The notes under the pieces were generated by a model. It had not been told where the DNA came from. It searched no databases and saw only the letters and a program-made list of their open reading frames with translations. A program made the position numbers and the translations under genes. A DNA stretch of 63,630 nucleotides, the filler included, from Folioceros fuciformis (lineage: Eukaryota): assembly GCA_049999805.1 (NCBI GenBank). It is 6 parts of 6 records of this genome, joined end to end, with 100 filler letters (N's around TTAATTAATTAA, not from the genome) between each part and the next. Parts side by side here need not be neighbours in the genome. Positions count along the whole stretch, not along the records: positions 51,722 to 63,630 come from JBNGIO010001024.1; 5 more parts are not named here. One strand, 5' to 3'. This document shows positions 12,321 to 63,545 of this stretch, piece by piece. The stretch's first letter is position 1. Each line of letters starts with the position of its first letter.

Positions 12321-12420
12321 NNNNNNNNNNNNNNNNNNNNNNNNNNNNNNNNNNNNNNNNNNNNTTAATTAATTAANNNNNNNNNNNNNNNNNNNNNNNN
12401 NNNNNNNNNNNNNNNNNNNN
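12321..12420. other. Artificial contig spacer
   Basis: 44 N + TTAATTAATTAA (stops in all six frames) + 44 N. Confidence 0.99.
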
Positions 12421-21423: not shown

Positions 21424-21523
21424 NNNNNNNNNNNNNNNNNNNNNNNNNNNNNNNNNNNNNNNNNNNNTTAATTAATTAANNNNNNNNNNNNNNNNNNNNN
21501 NNNNNNNNNNNNNNNNNNNNNNN
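21424..21523. other. Artificial contig spacer
   Basis: 44 N + TTAATTAATTAA + 44 N. Confidence 0.99.
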
Positions 21524-25865: not shown

Positions 25866-25965
25866 NNNNNNNNNNNNNNNNNNNNNNNNNNNNNNNNNNN
25901 NNNNNNNNNTTAATTAATTAANNNNNNNNNNNNNNNNNNNNNNNNNNNNNNNNNNNNNNNNNNNN
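25866..25965. other. Artificial contig spacer
   Basis: 44 N + TTAATTAATTAA + 44 N. Confidence 0.99.
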
Positions 25966-29843: not shown

Positions 29844-29943
29844 NNNNNNNNNNNNNNNNNNNNNNNNNNNNNNNNNNNNNNNNNNNNTTAATTAATTAAN
29901 NNNNNNNNNNNNNNNNNNNNNNNNNNNNNNNNNNNNNNNNNNN
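29844..29943. other. Artificial contig spacer
   Basis: 44 N + TTAATTAATTAA + 44 N. Confidence 0.99.
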
Positions 29944-47500: not shown

Positions 47501-50001
47501 CTCTCCTGCAGGAACTGTCAATTTGAAACATTTAGCTTGCCAGTGATCCAAAGTCACGGGCAGGAGCAGCATCGAGATCTGCCTTTTGAAAATCTATGCT
47601 GGTGGATCTGTGTCTCATGTGATAGCTCGTTTGCTAATTGGGAGGCATTGTGGCATCATGTCAGCCTGTTGCATGCCGATCAGCTGATGCATCGTGCCCA
47701 GGCCATTGGTGGTGCCTTGTGGAAGCCACGGCAGTGTGTGTTGGGCGTGCATCAGGCAATTGGTTGGAAGTGCGAAACACCCTGTATAGAGATGTCCACT
47801 GGCCTGTTCACAGAATATGGGGCTTCTGTGGATTCTTCTAATGCTAATGGTGGCTTGGAGGTGCTTGGCACTGTATCTGATACTCAAGTGCCTTCATCAC
47901 ATAACCTACCAACAGTGCATCGGGGAAGAAGTAGGGGTAGACCTAGGGGGAGGGTAAGGGGTGGGGATAGACCTAGAGGCCAGAGCAGGGGCACAGTTAG
48001 ATCATCAGACTTCGTGGATGGTGAACAGGAAGACATTATTGTAAAGAGAACGAAGTTAAATCCAAGTCCACAGGGCTGTGTGATGGCTAATGAAAAAGAT
48101 ATTGGACTTGTTAAAACAGATCAAAATCCGTTGGGTGCCATTGCAGACATGGCACCTGTACCACAACACAGGGTTGAGCAAGGTGCTGCAGAGGAGGAAA
48201 CAGCATTGCTAGATCGTCGTGAAGGTGTTGAAGTGTCAAGGGACTTCAAACCTTCGACGTGGGATATGGAAATGGATGGGCAGCGAGTTGTAAATGGGAC
48301 CAGTTTGGGTGGGGGTGTAGGACATTTTCTTTGGGAACAGGAGCTTAGATTATCAGGGATAATAGCTGATTTTCGCTTTCCATCAAGGAACGCTCATGAA
48401 CTCCAGCTATGTGAGGACTTGAGCCATGGGCTAGAGCCTTTGCAGGTGCCTTGTGTTGTTGACCGCGATGTGTTGGACATATTCTTTGATGGCCCCATTT
48501 CCCATGATGAGAAGCAGCGCAAGATATTAGAGCTTACTTCATGGAAGAACTTTGTCTATGTCAACAAACGATCTCTTGATCCATCGTTGGGCATTGATAC
48601 AAAGGTAGAGTATCCAGTAGTGACATGATGGTATTTCCACAAGGAAACGTATTATGTCCTTCAACTTGTGGATGAAGCTCCTGCTTAGAGCAGTTTTTTT
48701 GATACGCCAGTTGTTGGTGTGCAGAATTTTCAGGTGGGATGTTCTTGTCCAATGGAGAAATGTGTGCCTGAGCACTGTGACCATGTCAAAATCTTCGACA
48801 ATGACAATTGTGCTGCTTGTGACCTTCATGGACGTCCGATGCATGGCAGGTTCCCATACGATGCAGATGGTCGGATAATCCTCCAGGTAGCGGGAATGTG
48901 GTTTCACACAACTCAGCCTCTTTCCTGTCTGACTTGCATCTCAGCGAGTATTGTTCCTCACGATGACAGTCTGTATGGGATGCGAGCGCAGGAGGGTTTC
49001 TTGGTGTACGAATGTAATTCAAGCTGTCACTGCTTGGAAGATTGCCAAAACAGAATCTTGCAAAAAGGAGTTCAAGTGAAGCTTCAAGTTTACAAAACGA
49101 GACATAAGGTACTGTTTCTTAGTTTTGTGTCCAAGCACTTAGAACCTGGGCGTTTTTCCATGGCACGTTTGCAGCACACAGTCAGGGCTGTCTCATCTCG
49201 AGACTCTGCTGTAGGGCTGGGCTGTTAGGGCTGCTGAATCAATTCCTCTAGGAACTTTCGTGTGTGAGTACGTTGGGGAGGTGCTAAGTGACAAGGAGGC
49301 AAACAAGAGAGGAGAAAGGTATGCTGCTGCCTTTTCAGAATGTCCCATCGTCGGGCTGAGTGATTTATGCCCTCCAAGGGCAGCAGGGCATGGGATTTTT
49401 TGCCTATGGGCATGACTGTCGCTTCTGGGCGATCTTAGATGGATTGTACGATGAATCGACCAAGCTGGATTGCACTGGCATTCTGTGCAGGTACGACCAA
49501 TTGGGCTGCAGCTACTTGTATGATATTGACGTCCACCTTGATACTTCCGAGAGGGCGAGCAACAGAGTACGCCCTTATGTAATAGATGCAACGCACAACG
49601 GAAATGTTTCGCGCTTTATAAATCACAGGTAAAGCTTTTCCCTCGAGGTGTCTGTTCTGGTAATCGAAAATGAATTGCAGTCATTGACAGATTTCTTGGT
49701 GCAGTTGCTCTCCGAACCTTGTAAATTATCAGGTTCTTGTTGAGAGCATGGATTGCCAGCTTGCCCACATAGGCCTTTATGCCAGTCGCGATGTAAGTGA
49801 ACTGACTGGGCCCTAATCGTAAGCCTACATCATTGTGTGCTTGAAAATCACTCCAATGATCCCTGCTGAAAGCCATCTTTAATGCTTGTGCAGATCGCTG
49901 TCGGGGAAGAGCTAGCGTATGACTATAGATACAAACTGCTACCCGGAAAGGGGTGTCCATGTCAGTGTGGATCTGCCAACTGTCGCGGAAGGCTGTATTA
50001 G
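44572..50001 (+). CDS. SUVR5: SUVR5-like histone H3K9 methyltransferase (zinc fingers, pre-SET, SET, post-SET)
   Basis: [14 protein letters not shown], two CCCH-type motifs, C2H2 fingers, [56 protein letters not shown] and [13 protein letters not shown]. Confidence 0.95.
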
Positions 50002-51062: not shown

Positions 51063-51621
51063 ATGGAATTCTCGGGCAAAGCTATGGCACGATTGGCGCT
51101 AGTAGTCGCTGTGAGTGCTGTTTGATACTGGTCTTTCAATGCCAAGGTTTTTACTGGAGCTTGATTCTTTTGGATGGTGGCTGAACTGTTGCTGCATTAT
51201 TCGTATACAATTATGTGTTGCAGATCCTGGTGATTGCTGCAACGGGCTCTCTAGGCGTGGAGGTGAGTAGTCTAGACTGTTCAGGTCGAAAGTGTTGTGA
51301 TTTTGGAGGCCATTGTAACGGGTTGATGCTCATTTTGAGAAATCGCGGGAGTGCCTGAAATTGAGCAGGGCTGGTCAAGTGGTCCCCGGAAGTTGCTGGC
51401 TACCAATGACGAGTGGTACAACCGTGATAAGCAGAGGGTGCGCGACGCCGCCTCTTCCAAGCCACAGGACGTGGAAGATGATGACGATGACAAAGACATG
51501 CTCGGCCACAGCTGGCATGCGACGTCAAGGTTTGTGACGCTGCAGACGGCAGAACATTTTAAGAAACACGGTGAGGAGAAAAAGAAGGGGGGAGACGAGC
51601 ACAAGAAGGGGGACGACGAGC
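51063..51621 (+). CDS. Secreted protein precursor of unknown family, 3' truncated by the contig end
   Basis: Exons 51063-51110, 51224-51262 and 51369 onward join in phase 0 to give MEFSGKAMARLALVVAILVIAATGSLGVE-GWSSGPRKLLA..., an acidic run, and starting KKG(G/D)DE repeats. Confidence 0.7.
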
Positions 51622-51721
51622 NNNNNNNNNNNNNNNNNNNNNNNNNNNNNNNNNNNNNNNNNNNNTTAATTAATTAANNNNNNNNNNNNNNNNNNNNNNN
51701 NNNNNNNNNNNNNNNNNNNNN
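51622..51721. other. Artificial contig spacer
   Basis: 44 N + TTAATTAATTAA + 44 N. Confidence 0.99.
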
Positions 51722-54504
51722 TGCCCGTGGCCGTGGCGTACCTGGGAGGCCCTGGAGACACGCATTTTCCGCCATCGCCGGTTCCGCCTGCCGACGCCAA
51801 GCCACCGCAGCTCCCCGCCGCGGACCTTGCTATTCCGCTGCACTCGCCCTCGCCGCTCTCCGACCTCCGCTTCCTCACGTCTTCGTCCGCACCTCACCAA
51901 CAGCAGCAGCAGCAGGCGCGGGGGTTTTTCTCTGAGAAGGCAGGTGACCACGGGCTTTTGTTGGCGCTTGCAACATCACAAACGCCACACATCGGCTTGA
52001 GAAAGCATCACGTTATGACTTGTCACTCTTACCCACTTTGCCTCCCTTCACGTTCCTTCTTCCCCACACACCTTCTTTCTCACACCTCTTTTCTTTTCCT
52101 TCCCGTCTGTGCTTGGCATCCAGGATTTCGTGTGTGGAGAAGCGCCTGTTTCGGTTATACCAAGCTTCATCGACTTTGTAAATAATTCATGCACACCATT
52201 TCACGCCACCGGTAACACCGATTGTTGTTTCTAGCCTTTTGCCAATGCTTTTGAGTCCTTTGAGACTCTGCTTACGATCGTGATCTCGTGGTGTCTGTCT
52301 TCTGCCAGCGGAGGCCAGGAGGCTTTTGCTAGGAGTAGGCTTTCAGCAGTTGAGTGAATGCGAAGAGTGGCAATTGCAACCAGGAGGGCGCTACTTCTTC
52401 ACTCGCAACATGTCGTCGATATATGCATTTGCAGTGGGCCGAAAGTCAGTGTTCTCCCGCTTCCTTTCCATACTCAGTGCCCTGCACTTGTAGTTAGTTG
52501 ATCCCATTTCTTTTGGTACGGCTTCTGTTTAGAGTGTAACGCAATGCGCCCTCTTTCCTACTGCTGCTGCAGATTTAAACCAGGGAGCGGATTCCATGTT
52601 TTGGCCGCGCACGTGGACAGTCCGTGCTTGAAAGTGAAACCTGTATCAGCATCGGCCAAAGGCAGGTTTTTGCATGTGCGGGTCCAGACGTATGGAACGG
52701 GCTTATGGCACACATGGTTTGATCGGGATTTGAGTATTGCTGGGCGGGTTCTCATTCGAAGAAAAGATGGTGAACTTGCTCACGAAATGGTTCGGGTCAG
52801 GCGTCCTATTCTGCGCATCCCCACACTCGCTGCCTACTCAGATAGGTTTGTTGTTCACTCCTCTCGATTTGTCATGAGATTAGCAGCCTGCCGTGCCCTT
52901 GCGTTCAGTCTTAGAATATGCTGGAATGACCTGAAATCGGCAGGGAGAGAGGGTCTCCTGGTGCTACAGCAAATGTAAGTAAAAGGAGTGATGTCTTGGA
53001 AGGTCTGGAGCACTGGACAAGATCGAACTGGATTCACAGCTCGCCCCTGTTCTAGCGATGCAAATAGAGTCCGAGCTCACTGTATCATGCGAGTCGGAGT
53101 CATCCATACAAGCTGATAATGACAGTGGTCCCAATTATACTACACATGAGGCTCACCATCCAGTTCTGCTCCAGGTGAGCTCTACTATGGCTTACTTCTG
53201 CGCACAGGCATCTTCCGGATGACTTGGTTTCGAACTCATGTGCATCTCGATGACAGGTCTTGGCAGACGAGCTGAAATGCGAGGTGAGCGAAATTGCAGA
53301 TTTTGAGCTGAGTGTATATGACACACAACCAAGTTGTGTTGGAGGTGCACGTGATGAATTTGTGTTTTCGGGCAGGCTTGATAACTTAGCCTCCTCCTTT
53401 TGTGCACTTTGGGCTCTGCTGGACACTTGTGCAGACCCTGTTTCATTAGTAGAGGAAAACTCAGTTCGCATGGTCGCCCTCTTTGACAGTGGGGAGGTAA
53501 TATGATGATCATTGTGCTTCACTCCTGGTCTGATACAGTTGTTTGAATGCTATCGCACTTGTGGTTGATCAGGTGCTGGAAAGGTTGCAACCTAATCTTT
53601 GGATTGCGCAATTTGGATTGTACTCAAATCATCCGCGTTTGTGCAGGTTGGGTCTGACGCTGTCCAAAGCCCAGGACCTCAAACAATGTTTCAGGCCATG
53701 AATCGCATAGCAAGATGGCTTGCACGCAGCTCAAGTGGGGAAGGAATTGTTGAACGGTCAATTAGGCGTTCATTTATTGGTGAGTATTATGATAAATAAT
53801 ATCCTGTTGTCAGCTAAGGCCCATGTATACAAGGGAAATGCAAGAGGAAGCGGTAACTGTGTTAACGTCCTTTATCTGCCTGTCCTCTTGATTAACAGTA
53901 TCTGCGGACATGGCACATGCCTGGCATCCAAGGTACACGACGAACAGTGAAGAGCATCATCATCCAAAACTGCACGAAGGGTTGGTGATCAAGCACGATG
54001 TCAATCAAAGTCATGCTACGGATGCCATCACTTCGTTTCTGTTCAAGGAGCTGGCCAAGCGCAGCTGCATCCCCACGCAGGTCTGGAAGACTGGCAATGC
54101 CTAATTCGTTAGCTGAAGGTGCCGAAGTTGTCCTCCAGAAGCCCAAAGCTGACGATGATATGGGGTTGCATGATTGGTGGTTACAGAGTTTTCCAGTCAT
54201 GAGTGATGTGGGCTGCTGCTCGACGGTGGATTCAATCTTGGCTTCAGGATATGGGATCCGGATTGTGGATTGCGGGCTGCCGCAGCTGTCCATGCACAGG
54301 TAAGAGATGTCGGGACACCCTTGTTGGGTACTGTGGATTTCAGCGTAGGCCACACACAATCAGAGCTGATAGCCTTGTGCTGTGGGCTGTGTCAGTGTGC
54401 GGGAAATGTGTGCATCTGAAGATATAGAGACGGCGGTTCGTCACTTCAAGGCCTTCTTCTCAGACTTCTCTGCGTTGAAGGATCAACTGCAAGTCGACAT
54501 TTAG
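51722..54504 (+). CDS. M18 aspartyl aminopeptidase paralogue A, catalytically degenerate; 5' end missing
   Basis: Open spliced frame: [61 protein letters not shown]...QVDI*. Intron positions match paralogue B. The frame of the first exon is ambiguous (GT donor at 51944 or GC donor at 51940). Confidence 0.9.
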
Positions 54505-54715: not shown

Positions 54716-56119
54716 ATGGGTCGGATTAAGCCACAGGCGTTGCTGCTGCAGAGCAAGCGCAAGAAGGGGCCCTCCCGGCGCAGCTTCGCTAGCCTAGTAG
54801 GATGCTGCGCAGCAATTGTGTTGCTGATGGGATCGGTCCTGCTTTTCTACAAGCAAGGTGTAATGAGGTCGGTGGGTTGTTCCCTCCCCCGTCTACCGAT
54901 TCCGACTCTCCCTGCCTCGGATGCATGGCATCAGATGAGCTAAGACCATTTGTGGTTGTACAGGAAACGAGATACATCCTCCGCCACGGATCCCTTACTG
55001 CGGGTAATGCATACCCGCCAGCTGAAGTGCTCGTGTCAGTGACGTTCCACGTTCATTTGCCTGCCCTGACTCTCTGGCATCCTGCTGGCCGCCAGCTCGG
55101 TTTTTCACAATCGGAACGTGACATGTTCAGGATTCAAGCGCTGACGCCAGTGGAGTGCTGCCTCGATATGCGGTACTGAGTTCCAGCCCTTTCTTCCTGC
55201 TCCTGCTCCGTTCACATGTGGGCCGCTCGACCTCGTGTTTACGTCTGGTGCTAATTGCCCAGCTGCCGTGTGATTCCCCTCAGATTTTCAACACTAGCAA
55301 AGGACTGATTACAGTCGAGCTCTTTGGCCAACAAGTTCCTCGGACTGTGGGAAATTTTGTGAAGCTTAGGTATGTCTCTGCGAGGGTGGATTCGTCGTTG
55401 TGGTTTCCATCTGCCGGCAGGGAGCTGCCTGGCCTCTAGCAGATGATGTGCCTGGTGGGTTTGCCATGTTCCCCTGCTTAACGTATGGACCGGGCCATCT
55501 TTTCAGTCAAGAAGGCTACTACAATGGGCTCACGTTTCATAGAGTAATCAAGGACTTCATGATACAAGGTGGAGATCCTCACGGAGATGGAACAGGTGGA
55601 CAGTCAAGCTACGGACACCCTTTTGGCGACGAGTTTCATAGCGAGTAAGTGGCTTCGCACTCCGTCCGTCTGAGTCTGAAGAGCTTCCCTGCCGGCATAG
55701 TCCTCTCGCACACACTTCTGGCAGCGGCAGCCGCCAGGGAGTGTCTTGAGGTATTCTGAACCCTACTGAAATGTATGTTGCAGTTTGAAACATGAAGCCT
55801 TCACCCTTTCCATGGCAAACGCTGGGCCTGATACGAATGGCTCCCAGTTCTTCATCACCACCACAAGACCGCAGCATCATCTGGACAACAAACACAGTGT
55901 TTTCGGTCGGGTTATCGGAGGTCAAGACGTGGTCCGGGTTCGTGTGTTGCTATGCGATTCGCACTTTTTCGCACTCGTGTTGTGTAGTTGCTGTACATAA
56001 ACCTCGAGGTGTGTCGTTCCCTTCAGGAGATCGAAAAGGTGAAGACAGACAAAAGCGAGCACCCTGTGGAGCCAGTATTTATTCATGATGTCAAGCCCGT
56101 TGACGAGCCTGGATTATGA
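54716..56119 (+). CDS. CYP21-4: Membrane-anchored cyclophilin (PPIase), CYP21-4 type, 7 exons
   Basis: N-terminus [21 protein letters not shown] plus a TM helix; [44 protein letters not shown] and [12 protein letters not shown]. Confidence 0.92.
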
Positions 56120-57013
56120 AGCCTCTTTCATCTCGAGTGTGCGACCTGATTCCTGCTCGGATGGACCCGTTGGCAAGTCTTCAGCTGCATGGACGTTTCA
56201 CTGAATTAGGGTAGGCAGGAGGGGACTTGGCTACGGATTATGTAGTTGATTAGACAACTAGGTTCCGCTCTTGACGCATCGAGCCACTGGCTACACATTT
56301 CGGGCAGGTGGCTGGACACTGTTCTGTACAAATCGTAACATTGAATTTTGCCGTCATGTCGTTTTAGCATACGCAGGTAAAGAATGACGCACTACCATTT
56401 AGCCCTCCACATACATGAATTTCACGATCCATTGCAGGTTGTGCCATTGGATCCTACTTCATCTACCTTCACCGTTAGCAACAAACAAAGCTACAACTAC
56501 AGCAGCCCTTGCTCTAAAAGTAAACTCTCACGTACACACAGCACAAATAGAGTATTTTGAACCAATCGTCGCCGTCTCTATAAGAGCATTCCCTAGTATT
56601 CCTAGCATCTTCCCTACTTACATATATGTCTTGACGGCATACCCGCGGGTGCAGAAACGCAATGGCAATCTTGGTACCGCGGAGATGAGACGACCATCTA
56701 CAAACTACTAAACTCCGAACCCACCCGGTCAACTGCAGGAGGACTAAGGATTTGCAAAACATAGGGCACGTCGAAGTTTTCATGCTTACGTGCAACATGC
56801 TAGCCACAATGATAACCTCCCACAAGCCCGCTTCTAAATCCACATTCCTACTTTGTCAGCCCATGGACAGCGTTAACACGATGTCCACGAGTCCCGAAGC
56901 ACCGCGTGAATCCGATGTGCCCAATGTGCCCAGAACTTGCGCCACAATAGGATAAGAAAACAAAGCAACTGCTATACTATCCCCCTAGAGTCAACCAACT
57001 GTGAATCCGTTCC

Positions 57014-58975
57014 TCACATGGTTTCTTGAGATCGTCTTACAATTCGACTCACTTTCCGCTTGAACTCCTCCTTTGTCTCTCTCCACTCCTTCTGAGGTCG
57101 ATGACAACAGCATGGGTGAGATTACATCGATGACCATTACCAAGATAACAGCCCTGAACGTTCAATCTCACTCCCAGCACTTGTAGGAAGTTACACGGAT
57201 AACTTTCACATTCTGCCCACTTACAGCAGCATCAATGTTCGCAGGCGATTCATCATTTGGGCTGGAAAGCATGGAAATGATACTGAGCAGTATAGTCTCT
57301 ACCTGCACAACCACCAGGTTGCTTTCACGGTCAAAATGCAGCAGCAAATAGTGGTAAGGGCATTCAAATATCACAAGTCCCCAGTGTAGCTGATTCCATA
57401 CCGTGTGGACTGGTGACCATCTTTCACTGGCAAGCTCATACCCGTTTGGGTCGTCTCCCGGGGCATGAAGGATAGAGATGCAAACTCGTCCGTCGGGGTA
57501 AACTGGAACACAGATTTAAAGAAACAAGAACAACAAAGTCAGCATGCGTAAAACAGTCTCATGCATTGGATGCAGCATCTCAAACAGGACCAGGATGATG
57601 CCCAAGGGCTGTCACCACAAGACTATTCCATCATGGACTAGTAGGTTCAAACTTCCATACACAGAAAATCTAAGGAGAGTCTCCGAGTTCCTCACAAAAC
57701 TACGACCTGGTACCTGAGCGTTCACAGCGCTCTGTTAGTTCACATGAAACAGTCAAATGCAAAACTAACCGACAATGCAGACCAGATGCACAAATGATGG
57801 GAGCAGACCATTAGCTGCTGTTACTATGGGAAGCGACATAGCTCCAAAGAGCGGGCAACTTACCATTAGGGTGCCACATATCTGAGGTGAATCTCACTGA
57901 CGGTGGACTGTTTGGGTAATTTGAAGGAAAACTCATGATCGCATTGAAATACCCGCCCTCACTGCAACAAGGGTACCAAAAAAATCCTGAGATGAGAATC
58001 TACAACCACCAAAGCACGGCGGAGTCAAAGAGACTTGCATTGGAGCAAGAAACCGCTTCCAATTCCTCTGACGGTTGCTACGTTACTAAAACTGCCTTAC
58101 TCTGGTCGATGATAGTTTGAGACATCTTTCACAACTTAGAACAACTATCTTGAAGAGGTTAACCCCCAAGCGTACGGTACAAGGAGAAGGACGTAGCCAC
58201 TTACTACAGTGTGTCTGGGGGCCCAATGATGGTAACATTCCACTCAAAAACATTTGAGTCGTCCACAAGCCCAGCCGAGAAACCATCCACCGGATTCCTC
58301 GAAAGATCTGCAACCATCCCAGGTAAACTCAACTAAGTAAGACTCCAGACTGAACACACCAACACTAGATCCACAGCAGTTTCCTGGAGCTCATCTCTCG
58401 GAGGATATAGGCTGAGTTGCAAAGCTAACAAAGCTTATGAATTCCTATGCACACAACACGCAGCCACATTGCATTTGCCTACATTCTAGAACCTTCCACC
58501 CCAGCAACCCTAGACAATAGGACTCAGAACACCCGGCTTGGTGTTGTGTCCCCAAGCAACAACAGATAATGCGGAACAACAAGTAAAGCCCTGCCAAACT
58601 GGTCAAGTGCCCGGGTAGAGCAAGCAGGGGTGTGACAAGAGCAGACCACCAGGAGATCACCTGAATAAAGCGCCAGTACTTAACCAATTACTAAAGAAGG
58701 GCAGCATGACCCCAAGAGAAAATGCTCCGCTACACAGGCGGGGCGATAGAGAGCACGGCCAGGATCATGTAAGCAGGCGTGTGCTGAGAGATGGAACAGG
58801 AGTTACAACTAAAACCATTCGTAGTGCGGACGATGCAGCGAATTGTGGGTTAGCCAACAAGAGACCAGCAGGCAGGCACAGGGGCAGGCAGCAGGCAGTG
58901 GATTAGAAGAAGCGAAAAGGATGTTTTACCTTTCAACTGTTTGCGCAAGAGAAGGCTGGCTTGGCTTTCCGACAT
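57014..58975 (-). CDS. UBC7: Ubiquitin-conjugating enzyme E2, UBC7/UBE2G class, 6 exons
   Basis: [61 protein letters not shown] and [12 protein letters not shown]. Confidence 0.95.
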
Positions 58976-59563
58976 ACTGCTTCCGCTTGGAGTGTGTGAA
59001 GGCTTGCCGACGCGACTCGGTTGGATGAGCACTTGTGCTGCGGGAGCACAGGCTGGCGGTGATCGAGCTGCGATGCAGACGCCCAAGAATTGCAAGCGCA
59101 GCGTACAAGGATCAGGGTAGGATCCAGGCACGCCACCGCCTCATGAAATCCTGGTAATACAACCAACGATAGATCATGAAGCGGCGAGGCAGGTTCGTAG
59201 ACGGCGATGTGCACACCAAGTGCCCAGAAGAGTGACGGGCAGGGGCAATGGAGATCCAAGCCCCCAGGGTTGCCTCTCTTCTATCTTCTATTACTTCCAT
59301 TCTCGATGTACATATGTGCGAGATGCACCGAGATACATCCACATGACTTACCTTAATTGCCATCATCAACTCCTGCTTGCTGCTGCCCTAAACTTTACAC
59401 CGGCATTTTCCATTGTGTCACCCGTTGGCTTTGGCGGTACCTGGCTACAGCTACTGCCTATGTATGTGCACACAAATTTTAAAAAACGTGAAACGGCGGT
59501 GGGAGACGTACTCGCGTACTCGTGTGGAATCGTCTGTCGTTGCTGTTGCCTCAGCTCGGCGCC

Positions 59564-60568
59564 ATGCCGCAGCGCCACTCGAAGAACAACAACGATCTCG
59601 CCTTCTTCACCTACGACGAGCGGAAGAAGCTAGGGTATGGCACGCAGCGGGAGCGGCTCGGCAGGGATTCGATCAAGCCCTTCGACGCCTGCTGCATTTG
59701 TTTGAAGCCCTTCGTCGAGCCGCTGTGCTGCCTCAAAGGACATGTCTTCTGCAAAGAGTGCATCTTTCAGTACCTGCTGGCTCAGAAGAAGGACATCAAA
59801 AGGTATTCTGTTCGGCATGCTGACGGCGTGAGAGTTGTGGATTGATGGTTGTGCGGATCTTGATCTGTTTGTGCTGCACGACGCTTCAGGAAGCTGGCTC
59901 TGTTCACAGCGCAGCAGAAGGAAGAGCAAGAGCGGGAGGAGGAGAGGAAGCAGGCGGAGCGGGAGCGGGAATTAGATGCTTTCGACCGTCAGAACAGCAG
60001 TGCGGTGCCACATCATGATAGGAGTAGTGTGTCTAACAAGATGAATGGCTTCCACGGAGCGAACAGTGTGAAGGTGACCTCGTACGAAGAGGAAGCGCTG
60101 AGAACCATGAAGGCCTTCTGGTTGCCCTCCGCCACACCGGAAGCGCCGGCGAAGGCTCAGGCTCCTCCCTCTGATACTGTCTGCCCCGAGGGTAAAGAGA
60201 AGATCAAGCTCAAGGAGTTGTTCCCACTTAGGTTTTCGATGCCTCCGGCCCGCGGGTCTCCGGAGCAGGATGATTCAGGCAGATTCTGGTGTCCGTCTTG
60301 TTCCCTCACCTTCACCAACACGTCCACGCTGGTGGCGCTTTCGACCTGCGGACATGTGTATTGCAAGAAGTGTACAGATCAATTTGTGGCCGTGGACAAG
60401 CGGTGCATGGTGTGCAACCAGGTTTGCAAAGCGAGGAACCTGGTGGAATTGGAGAAGGGTGGAACAGGGTTTGCAGGCCACGGAGATGACCTGGAGGCTA
60501 AGACCTTCAAGCACGTAGGCAGCGGAACTGGCATGGGGCTGGCACGGCCTACAACTCGGCTGCTCTGA
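59564..60568 (+). CDS. NOSIP: NOSIP/CSU1 RING-type E3 ligase, 2 exons
   Basis: MPQRHSKNNNDLAFFTYDERKKLGYGTQRERLGRDS, an N-terminal RING-like domain, AFWLPSATP, a C-terminal RING and GGTGFAGHG. Intron at ~59803-59889. Confidence 0.95.
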
Positions 60569-60992: not shown

Positions 60993-63545
60993 ATGGCCCG
61001 CTGGTTTCAGCGCTCCAGCTGCGCCTCGTTGCAGAGCAATGTCTTGTCCTCCGCCGGCGTGTTGGATAATCTGGCATCGTGTGGCGGGTGTGACCTGGCC
61101 GTCTTTGGGTGCCGACTCCGCAATGAATCCTCCTATTCGGGCCTGGGCCTGGGCCTTCGCCTTCATCGTGCATCTTCCCCCGTTCCCGCTTTGAGGAAGG
61201 ATGTGAAGGTTTGGGCATCTGCCAGCGATCAGTATCCCTGTGCCTGCAGGGGGTTGCAGGGATCCAACTTGTTGCAATCGAATCTTGCCTCGAGCTGCTT
61301 TGTCGACCGACTCATTGTAGCGCCCCAGGCCGCCTCCGGAGCCGCCACCACATCCTCTGATTTGTCTTTGGATGAGGTAAGACCGCTCTCGGTCAGTTAC
61401 CGTGCGTGGGGAAGATTTCGCTGTCGCTTGATGAATCTGATCTGGTGGGGTTTCCGGCCGTCCAGGGTGTTGGAGGTGTTGGCAAGAACGTGGTTGGTGA
61501 CTTGGTGAACTTCCTGAATGCATCCTGGACACCCTTCCACGCCACAGGTGGGTATCTGACTTCAGCCTGCTCTCTGTTTTCTGCCTGCGGTGTGCCCGGC
61601 TCAACCCAAACTGCCGTGATGTTTGGACTCGTTGCTTTGGCTGCAGCGGAGGCAAAGCGGTTGCTCCAGGAAGCTGGGTTTGTGCAGTTGCACGAGGCAG
61701 ATGAATGGCAAGTCCAACCTGGTGGCCGATATTTTTTCACCCGGAACATGTCGTCCATATTTGCGTTCGCCGTTGGTGAAAAGTAGGTGTCGTGTCTTGT
61801 CCATGGGTTTGGAAAGATATCGACTTGTTTTGTCTGTTTAGCGGTGTTGAGTTTTGTCCAGGTATTGCGGCTCTGGGAATCTTGATTTTGCTCTTTGAAT
61901 TGCCTGGAACAGGTACGAATCTGGAAACGCATTTCATGTGATAGCAGCACATACGGACAGCCCTTGTCCCAAGTTGAAACCTGTGTCTGCTGCCTCCAAG
62001 GCTGGCTTCCTGAATGTCGGTGTTCAAACATACGGAGGTGGTTTGTGGCATACTTGGTTCGACAGGGACCTTAGTGTGGCAGGGCGGGTTATCCTGAGGA
62101 GGGCAGGGAAGCGTGTGGAGCAGGAGCTAGTGAAGGTGGAAAGGCCTATTCTTAGGATACCGACTCTTGCAATTCATTTGGACAGGTAGTTGCTACGTTT
62201 TAAAGGTGAAGTGGTGGTGGCACGTTGGAAAGGATGAGTGTGAGTTGGGCGTGGGTTAGTAACAGGGACAGCGTTTGTGGTGACATGGAAGATTTCAGGT
62301 CAATCAATACTGATGGATTCAAGCCAAACCTGGAAAGTCATCTGGCGCCGGTGCTGGCCACGCAAATAAGATCAGAACTGTCCGGTGGGCATGATGAAGG
62401 GAACGGTGCAGCATTCAGCGTGAACAAGTCTCACCACTCGCTCCTGTTGCAGGTACCGATGTGCTGACGGGGCGGTGAGACGAGCAAGCAAGGTTGCACT
62501 TAGAGCTCTGCAAAGAAGGAATGGAGCAAGAGTTATAACGGCCGGCGGTTTGTGAATGCAGGTGTTGGCAGAGGAGTTGAAGTGTGGCGTAGAAGAGATC
62601 GCGGACTTGGAGCTGAACGTGTGTGACACACAGGCGGGTTGCATCGGCGGGGCGAGGAAAGAGTTCATCTTCAGTGGAAGGCTGGACAATCTGGCATCCT
62701 CCTTCTGTGCTCTACGCGCTTTGATAGACACGTGCAAGTACGACACAGCTTTATCGGAGGAGACGTGCATTCGAGCTGTGGCTCTATTCGACAACGAGGA
62801 GGTGGGGGATGGCTGGCTGCAAACGCGGGGTCCAGCTAGGCCGGGACGCGCAAGGGAGGAGTGGTGTGGAGTGGAGTGAAGTAGAGGAAGCATCAGAAGT
62901 TTTTGGAAGGGTGTGACGCGCGTGCATGTATGTATGTGCAGGTGGGATCTGAGTCTGCTCAAGGGGCTGGGTCGCCGACCATGTTTCAGGCAATGAAACG
63001 GATTAGCCGACTGCTGAGCCGCGGCGTGGACAGGGAGGGCATTGTGGAGCGGACGATCCGGAAGTCTTTCTTAGGTGAGAAGGAGAAGAGTGGTGGGTTG
63101 ATTGGGTGGATTTTGGATGTGGATTTGTGGATTGGTATGCATGATGTGGGGTTGGTGCGCAGTGTCGGCCGACATGGCTCATGCTGTGCATCCCAATTAT
63201 TGCGAGAGGCATGAGGAGCATCACCAGCCGAAGTTGCACGAGGGGCTTGTGATAAAGCACAACGCCAACCAGCGGTACGCCACAACGGCGGTGACGGCGT
63301 TCCTGTTCAAGGAGGTGGCTAGGGCTTGCGGCATCCCGACGCAGGTGAGCACAGAGAGGTAGAGACGGCTCCGAGAGCTGGCTGGCCTTGGTGGGTGATG
63401 AACGCTGACCGGGTTGTGGACCGGATGTGCAGAACTTCGTAGTGCGCAACGACATGGGGTGCGGGTCGACTATCGGGCCCATCTTGGCGGCCGGCATGGG
63501 CATCCGCACGGTGGACTGTGGCATGCCGCAGCTGTCGATGCACAG
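60993..63545 (+). CDS. DNPEP: M18 aspartyl aminopeptidase paralogue B, canonical, with transit peptide; last exon beyond the window
   Basis: [60 protein letters not shown] and LSMH are all canonical. The start and first exon(s) are uncertain. Confidence 0.93.

Follow-up and report, generated by a model that had tools for sequence, protein, structure and literature searches.

Does an M18 aminopeptidase gene that has lost active-site residues and kept an open reading frame still encode a maintained protein and, if so, of what kind? The question is raised by a locus in a 63,630-nucleotide stretch of Folioceros fuciformis DNA (GenBank assembly GCA_049999805.1; hereafter, the window), in which contigs are joined by blocks of N. 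One contig (C1024, JBNGIO010001024.1), which spans positions 51722 (first base) to 63630 (last base), holds gene A, the subject of this analysis, and, 6.5 kb away, its paralogue gene B; an initial annotation had described the two as a candidate pseudo-enzyme pair, with A intact but apparently catalytically dead. We find that gene A is a member of the DAP2b clade, together with genes of Physcomitrium, Ceratodon, Sphagnum, Selaginella and Diphasiastrum, and that this clade is under purifying selection. The best reading of the sequences, which we regard as evenly poised between right and wrong, is that of a pseudo-peptidase that acts in the nucleus and binds through a zinc-finger module.

The spliced model of gene A (51724-54504; Table 1) consists of ten exon pieces and 553 codons with a single terminal stop, and its introns measure 82-184 nt. 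We compared it with four sequencing runs: X3, which carries the same organism label, X16 and X19 from relatives, and the DNA run X1. No run is registered as RNA; X3, X16 and X19 were guessed to be RNA, a guess supported by joints that skip introns, and, because all four runs consist of contigs, expression levels and tissues cannot be read from them. All 9 introns of A are present as joints in X3 contigs, and the relatives X16 and X19 have them as well, one of the joints holding additional letters between its two sides, whereas none of the 9 joints occurs in X1. The M18 region is free of stops and frameshifts, as the initial annotation had stated. The region it gave, 51722..54504, does hold the gene, but 51722 is the contig start, directly after an assembly linker, and the gene is truncated there. 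The first visible intron is of the GC-AG type; a GT donor at 51944 was rejected as out of phase, and the GC donor at 51940 fits. For the exon that follows LAAYSD, acceptors at 52944-52989 were dropped, and 53003 gives the frame that is present in the reads.

Splicing of gene A also varies. Removal of the alternative 151-nt intron inside the FDSGE exon shifts the frame, deletes Asp264 and yields a stop within a few codons; this form is possibly a conserved switch for nonsense-mediated decay or a truncated form. Contigs of X16 and X19 show splicing to an alternative acceptor at 52944, of which X3 gave no sign; reading on from there shifts the frame, and a GTAAGT donor-like site at 52975 suggests a 31-nt mini-exon near 52944. 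In X3, an alternative donor at 52012 adds 24 in-frame linker residues.

The codons of the five metal ligands of gene A (H94, D264, E302, D346 and H440) were read directly, and all five are retained, in agreement with the earlier claim. The canonical FDNEE motif has become FDSGE (GGG at 53491-93 vs. GAGGAG in B at 62796), which replaces Glu301 with Gly, and Tyr381 of the canonical enzyme is His (CAT) in A; the other motif changes previously quoted for A are all present in the alignment. Gene A keeps Lys374, the determinant of acidic P1, and His352. A protein search with the FDSGE exon returned 123 matches, of which 120 were listed; among these 120, the top nine are 76-83% identical to the query, apart from one Artemisia record at 64%, and include Physcomitrium, Diphasiastrum, Selaginella moellendorffii and Sphagnum. 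In none of the nine is the first Glu present. The orthologues which the initial annotation had proposed to look for were found in mosses and lycophytes, with Gly as the common replacement.

We aligned 11 clade rows (A, three Physcomitrium, Ceratodon, two Sphagnum, Selaginella, Diphasiastrum and two others) with 19 canonical rows that were picked by hand for comparison. The five ligands are kept in 11/11 clade rows. Glu301 is present in 0/11 clade rows (10 Gly, 1 Pro) vs. 19/19 canonical rows, and residue 414 is Cys in 11/11 clade rows and Gly in 19/19 canonical ones. His170 is retained in 2/11 clade rows, both from lycophytes, Tyr381 in none of the 11, and the multimer residue His352 in 10; position 374 is occupied by Lys (8/11) or Arg (3/11), and His349 varies among the clade rows, as do His170, Tyr381 and the swapped loop. 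There are 211 near-invariant canonical columns; 149 of these are retained and 26 lost, the losses being concentrated in two places, the swapped loop and the pocket for the substrate. The M18 domain of A is 68-72% identical to those of four DAP2b orthologues, and the Pfam family PF02127 (Peptidase_M18) covers 1-432/432 on three orthologues (P0006, P0008 and P0003). Among 143 stored proteins with the FDxxE motif, a redundant set, 46 lack the Glu, and the base position in clade-type proteins holds only Gly, Ala, Ser or Pro, with Ser in locus L008.

In a tree of 25 rows, a 9-row clade is recovered at 100/100, with weak deeper forks and bootstrap values not fully settled; the lycophyte pair and the moss group form separate branches, and A lies outside both. 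A GC donor after the same FFSEK-type codon is common to A and four orthologous loci (L008, L013, L017 and L021). The metagenome locus L008:645-6044, which groups with mosses in the tree, carries FDSSE, has lost part of the His170 loop and shows the fusion with the N-terminal domain described below. The third Physcomitrium copy (P0195, P0123) looks decayed, with deletions, AHTGSP and FDSPE, and with one domain Cys changed to Tyr in P0123.

Between gene A and X16, 125 difference rows were found, of which 40 were listed. Among these 40, 27 lie in M18 exons, with 23 synonymous and 4 non-synonymous differences (332 and 1111 sites; ratio near 0.05), 10 lie in the linker (5 synonymous and 5 non-synonymous) and 3 in an intron. 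Comparison of the FDxxE exon with three moss-type genomic loci gave a non-synonymous divergence (dN) of 0.13-0.18 and a synonymous divergence (dS) of 1.3-1.8; the second exon tested was saturated in 2 of the 3 comparisons. The resulting dN/dS of approximately 0.05-0.1 indicates purifying selection and argues against the young pseudogene that the initial annotation had named as an alternative. A young or decaying pseudogene could be suspected because the 5' end is absent from the assembly and a frameshifting splice form is common, but the moss and lycophyte orthologues, the excess of synonymous differences, the open frame and the conserved introns make this explanation extremely improbable, unless a lesion lies in the 5' part outside the contig.

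For human DNPEP, the proposal is that Glu301 activates the water; the site is completed by His170 of the partner subunit, and the H170F mutant is inactive (PMC3472314). Gly414 forms part of the catalytic-pocket lining, and the multimer depends on His352 (PMC5638241, Table S1). Loss of Glu301, His170 and Gly414 together with retention of His352 and the ligands makes a folded, metal-holding, non-hydrolysing M18 domain the likeliest state, and we consider it very likely, on the strength of these residues, that the product of gene A is inactive as a peptidase. Two points tell against this conclusion. The role of Glu301 in DNPEP is a structural proposal rather than a mutant result (PMC3472314), and a site that retains all five ligands and has gained an invariant Cys could have changed its chemistry instead of being dead. 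Under that explanation, the two-metal site with Cys at Gly414 would perform another reaction or act as a sensor of metal or of redox state, and the Cys would be a nucleophile or an additional ligand. The invariance of ligands and Cys in 11/11 rows, Lys or Arg at position 374 in all 11, the restriction of the base position to four residues, and the contrast with the inactive Drosophila sperm leucyl aminopeptidases (S-LAPs), which lost their ligands, all fit such a function; yet a conserved substrate site would not be expected to vary as freely as do His170, His349, Tyr381 and the swapped loop, human DNPEP loses its activity with H170F, and the ligands may be retained for folding. We therefore consider a changed chemistry quite improbable.

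Full-length orthologues of gene A are 720-760 amino acids long and place a domain of approximately 140 residues first, followed by a basic patch resembling a nuclear localisation signal (NLS) and a loose linker; a Pro/Gln-rich linker connects the Cys-rich domain to the M18 domain, and A-type proteins open with an acidic N-terminus ahead of the Cys-rich domain. The domain contains ten cysteines with the spacing 2-42-4-15-2-29-2-8-2 and is strongly basic (isoelectric point 9.2-9.6), and basic patches are present in 6/6 proteins checked. Among five moss and lycophyte proteins, it is better conserved than the M18 part (86-92% vs. 63-84% identity); dN for the domain is 0.02-0.07, and dS is 0.54 or saturated. 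All 15 stored proteins that combine the Cys-rich domain with the FDxxE motif (isoforms and alleles included) lack the Glu. Searches with the domain found 3 proteins of similar length and 10 shorter ones, 8 among 1.84 billion representatives, and 16 metagenome loci; fusion with M18 exons is seen in 8/16 loci (L008, L011, L013-L015, L017, L021 and the intron-free L018), and the remaining 8 end within about 2 kb of the domain. No named match from seed plants, ferns or Marchantia was obtained with these domain queries. A fit with flagellated sperm was considered, but no match turned up from Marchantia or ferns, both of which have such sperm. Two distant homologues, P0187 and P0188 (36-38% identity), keep most cysteine groups and have basic and acidic tails, with no M18 part in the called frame; they may show the origin of the Cys-rich domain.

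That gene A itself carries this domain is, in all likelihood, the case, given the homologous linker, the GC-AG intron and the length of transcript upstream. At its start, over 220 bases, the contig matches linker residues 173-245 of the orthologue P0122, which is the only match of P0122 in the genome, and P0122 carries domain and linker in one frame; 51722..51939 also aligns to the linkers of P0008 and P0006. Transcript contigs extend 949 (X3) and 918 (X16) letters 5' of 51722, compared with 483 needed for the domain, and in X16 this extension is in a single piece with the M18 exons of A; the DNA run X1 breaks 48 letters upstream of 51722. Set against this conclusion, the Cys-rich domain was not found in the 87-Mb assembly with two protein queries (P0008 and P0122) and a pattern, and its presence in A rests on linker, intron and an upstream transcript that was not read. 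A P0187 query did not find the domain in the assembly either, and a domain profile run over the window and five further stretches gave no match. We read this non-detection as an assembly gap rather than as absence; because the 5' end of A lies in that gap, the initial annotation was blind to the N-terminal domain.

The nearest clusters of the domain in the ESM Atlas are zf-4CXXC_R1 (first, at 0.86, with 50% of members), followed by PHD, VAL1 and ADD fingers. The class zf-4CXXC_R1 has eleven cysteines (CXXCX10CX4CX7CXXCX19CXXCX3CXCXXC; PMC10538959), and the domain resembles its CDCA7 and plant DDR and JMJ types in the order CxxC, Cx4C, CxxC, CxxC and further Cys (PMC10538959, PMC11343034), but differs in having 10 Cys instead of 11 and spacers of 42/15/29/8 instead of 10/7/19/3. 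CDCA7 uses Arg-Gln after the first CxxC on methyl-CpG (PMC11343034), whereas no Arg-Gln follows the first CxxC of the DAP2b domain. Nor are the ICF (immunodeficiency, centromeric instability, facial anomalies) residues of class I (CDCA7), R274, G294 and R304, evident in the domain: by eye, and with the register assumed, Thr follows the first CxxC and Arg stands for Gly in FCxxC. The cysteine count, the spacers, the lack of a Pfam match, a profile score at shuffle level and the missing Arg-Gln all speak against membership of zf-4CXXC_R1. Two AlphaFold2 models of the domain reached a predicted local distance difference test (pLDDT) score of 44.6 and 45.8, and the best structural matches (VIA-align Z 3.6, Foldseek E 2.2) are meaningless on such models. 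The domain is best described as unclassified and probably zinc-binding, and it may work like a chromatin finger.

The basic finger and the NLS-like patches point to the nucleus, and we slightly favour a nuclear location and chromatin binding of A. A number of results weigh against a nuclear zinc-finger protein. The Atlas score of 0.86 falls below 0.9 and so serves as a lead only, and no Atlas match that could be used came from P0187, a distant homologue; no Pfam match, PF10497 included, was obtained for the domain at E values up to 10 (P0006, P0008, P0122, P0187 and P0188), and PDB sequence searches with the domain gave no match. When the domain was compared by profile with the two zf-4CXXC_R1 proteins of this genome, on a template of one or two sequences, the score of 17.1 stayed under the 17.3 that marks the 95th percentile of shuffles, and the residues with which CDCA7 contacts methyl-CpG are not evident in the domain. 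The NLS is a regular-expression match only, and the Physcomitrium annotation includes shorter isoforms that lack the domain (P0004 and P0141).

An alternative that places the same domain in the cytosol has it bind cargo N-termini or a ubiquitin enzyme, with the inactive M18 cage serving to scaffold cargo that is degraded or is transported by a vacuolar or autophagic route. Zinc fingers bind peptides as well, and PDB entry 7DDE is, by its title, a fission-yeast aspartyl aminopeptidase construct with a ZZ-finger protein. The Pfam searches gave no ZZ or RING match (E up to 10), and the domain is strongly basic, with NLS-like patches and chromatin-type fingers as its Atlas neighbours. Even with the precedent of 7DDE, whose ZZ-finger protein is presumably the receptor Nbr1, and with Arabidopsis DAP1 being cytosolic or vacuolar (PMC5638241), we regard a cytosolic adaptor as improbable.

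Gene B is a canonical DAP2a-type enzyme, whose last exon lies beyond the contig end at 63630. Its first exon encodes 128 residues, few of them acidic, and reads like a transit peptide, so that B looks organelle-targeted, in keeping with the plastid localisation of Arabidopsis DAP2 (PMC5638241). Genes A and B are 64% identical and share intron positions, as the initial annotation had observed: the seven introns inside the B model match those of A in place and phase, as does the last donor of B, after SMH. In both genes a phase-0 intron directly precedes the M18 domain, which suggests that a targeting exon was exchanged for a zinc-finger exon. With one exon of A as the query, the assembly yielded three M18 loci: A, B and a third on contig C4585 (L003) with a canonical FDHEE, which groups with DAP1-type proteins in the tree.

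The initial annotation had further suggested a hetero-dodecamer. In such a complex, A would be an inactive subunit that tunes or scaffolds an active enzyme, either B or a cytosolic DAP1-type copy (C). The identity to B, the 149 of 211 near-invariant columns kept, His352 in 10/11 rows, the annotated short isoforms without the N-terminal domain, and the proximity of A to B are compatible with such a mixed cage. However, B starts like a transit peptide, whereas A-type proteins start with an acidic stretch, the Cys-rich domain and a basic patch; the orthologous pair is not adjacent in Diphasiastrum, where the locus tags (07G and 05G) indicate different chromosomes, and in Selaginella its two members sit on scaffolds that differ in length. 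The domain-swapped loop ranks with the parts that have diverged most, and a mixed dodecamer gives no reason for the added domain being better conserved than any other part. A mixed cage of A with the organelle-targeted-looking B is unlikely, and a mixed dodecamer with either partner decidedly improbable. Taken together, the maintained pseudo-enzyme of the earlier proposal holds up (Gly301 in orthologues, splicing and dN/dS), whereas the pairing with B found little support.

A sequence of events that would account for a nuclear pseudo-peptidase starts from an organellar aspartyl aminopeptidase, DAP2, which would have duplicated before the split of bryophytes and vascular plants to give DAP2b. 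In this copy, the transit-peptide exon would have been replaced by the ten-cysteine, basic, zinc-finger-like domain with its NLS-like patch, and peptide hydrolysis would have been lost. The protein would then enter the nucleus, where the zinc finger would contact DNA or chromatin, while the M18 part would fold around two metals, with the gained pocket Cys perhaps closing the site, and would serve as an oligomerising or peptide-binding platform, as does the inactive aminopeptidase fold of Spt16. Zinc binding, the exon swap and the oligomer of DAP2b are all steps that we infer. A more speculative extension, which we think rather unlikely, is that a peptidase cage able to assemble by itself became a multivalent chromatin scaffold in early land plants: a DAP2b oligomer of up to 12 subunits would present a new class of zinc finger reading DNA or nucleosomes, and the Cys-closed two-metal site would clamp peptides or switch with metal or redox state. 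Mosses, lycophytes and the present lineage would have retained this system, which would have been lost towards seed plants.

Table 1. Positions in the window of gene A, gene B and the assembly joins.
Feature	Position	Strand	Basis or remark
Visible end of 5' exon of A, Pro/Gln-rich linker, cut by contig start	51722..51939	+	homologous to orthologue linkers
Exon piece 1 in spliced model of A	51724-51939	+	open frame
Phase-0 GC-AG intron, 184 letters	51940..52123	+	joint in X3, X16, X19
M18 domain of A, nine exons including stop	52124..54504	+	open spliced frame and joints
M18 exons of A	52124-52211, 52309-52444, 52573-52845, 53003-53174, 53257-53496, 53647-53779, 53899-54080, 54187-54299, 54396-54504	+	
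Tyr codon TAC replacing loop residue His170	52835..52837	+	codon read
Alternative 151-nt intron inside FDSGE exon	53284..53434	+	joint in X3, X16, X19
Gly codon GGG replacing putative general base Glu301	53491..53493	+	codon read
Metal-ligand codons of A, kept	H94 52610-12, D264 53380-82, E302 53494-96, D346 53907-09, H440 54295-97	+	
GCCST motif, Cys gained at pocket residue Gly414	54211..54225	+	alignment
Gene B, canonical DAP2a-type M18 aminopeptidase	60993..63545	+	open frame, all catalytic residues
N blocks, 44 N + 12 letters + 44 N	12321-12420, 21424-21523, 25866-25965, 29844-29943, 51622-51721		five, common layout
Assembly linker, 5' part of gene A missing there	51622..51721	none	N44, TTAATTAATTAA, N44

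Because the N blocks are assembly joins, gene adjacency across them is not assured; the block that was actually read carries TTAATTAATTAA as its 12 letters (N44-TTAATTAATTAA-N44). A separate gene at 51065-51621 enters the gap, with a hydrophobic, signal-peptide-like start and Lys/Gly/Asp/Glu repeats; the frame at about 51065-51621 was rejected as the 5' end of A, since it lies on another contig and shows no similarity to orthologue N-termini. Further upstream, 49000-49990 is, by a motif recognised by eye, presumably the end of a SET-domain-like gene. Between A and B, 54716-60568 holds three genes: a cyclophilin (PF00160), a minus-strand gene that by eye resembles a ubiquitin-conjugating enzyme, and an Rtf2/RING protein; one X3 contig continues from the last exons of A into the cyclophilin region.

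The DAP2b proteins form a very conserved family of seed-free plants that has been overlooked under the database label 'probable aspartyl aminopeptidase', with a domain that has no Pfam entry and is better conserved than the enzyme part. The family would represent an M18 pseudo-enzyme, with an aminopeptidase fold recycled as a binding or scaffold protein and, if nuclear, a candidate chromatin factor apparently lacking in seed plants. This is directly testable in Physcomitrium, which holds three DAP2b loci, one of them apparently decaying; its copies include XP_024361340 and XP_024356340. In the literature searched, mostly openly accessible papers, we found no description of the base loss, of the fused domain or of any M18 pseudo-enzyme. 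The expansion of DAP2 in moss and clubmoss has been noted (PMC5638241), and Park et al. 2017 (PMC5638241) list SmDAP2b, PpDAP2b1 and PpDAP2b2 as ordinary DAP2 paralogues with models of 486-519 amino acids. These belong to the same clade, SmDAP2b being SELMODRAFT_86972 (PMC5638241), our P0133, a member of the P0008 cluster. The published models are without the N-terminal domain, and in the passages and tables consulted that paper does not mention that Glu301 is lost or that a zinc finger is present (0 occurrences of the latter term in the main text; PMC5638241). Human DNPEP (PDB 4DYO, PMC3472314) is homologous over the whole M18 domain (E = 9e-122 for P0008) and has the same HDEDH ligands, Lys374 and His352. 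Compared with it, DAP2b is changed at Glu301, His170 (except in lycophytes), Tyr381 and Gly414, and has an extra N-terminal domain of approximately 250 residues with its linker.

Besides Spt16, TAF2 is another inactive aminopeptidase fold in a nuclear complex, of a different peptidase fold. The N-terminal domain of Spt16 resembles the proposed DAP2b in being an inactive aminopeptidase fold in a nuclear complex, and in human it binds H3/H4; it differs from DAP2b in its pita-bread fold, its pan-eukaryotic distribution and the lack of a fused zinc finger (PMC4741192). The Drosophila S-LAPs, which the initial annotation had invoked as an analogy, are, like DAP2b, paralogues that lack catalytic residues and are under purifying selection (PMC3078892). 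They belong to the M17 family, have lost metal ligands in cluster I and have a bulk structural role, with no added domain described in the available part of that paper (PMC3078892). The analogy is therefore a loose one, which holds for an inactive peptidase paralogue but not for the metal ligands, lost in the S-LAP cluster and kept in DAP2b.

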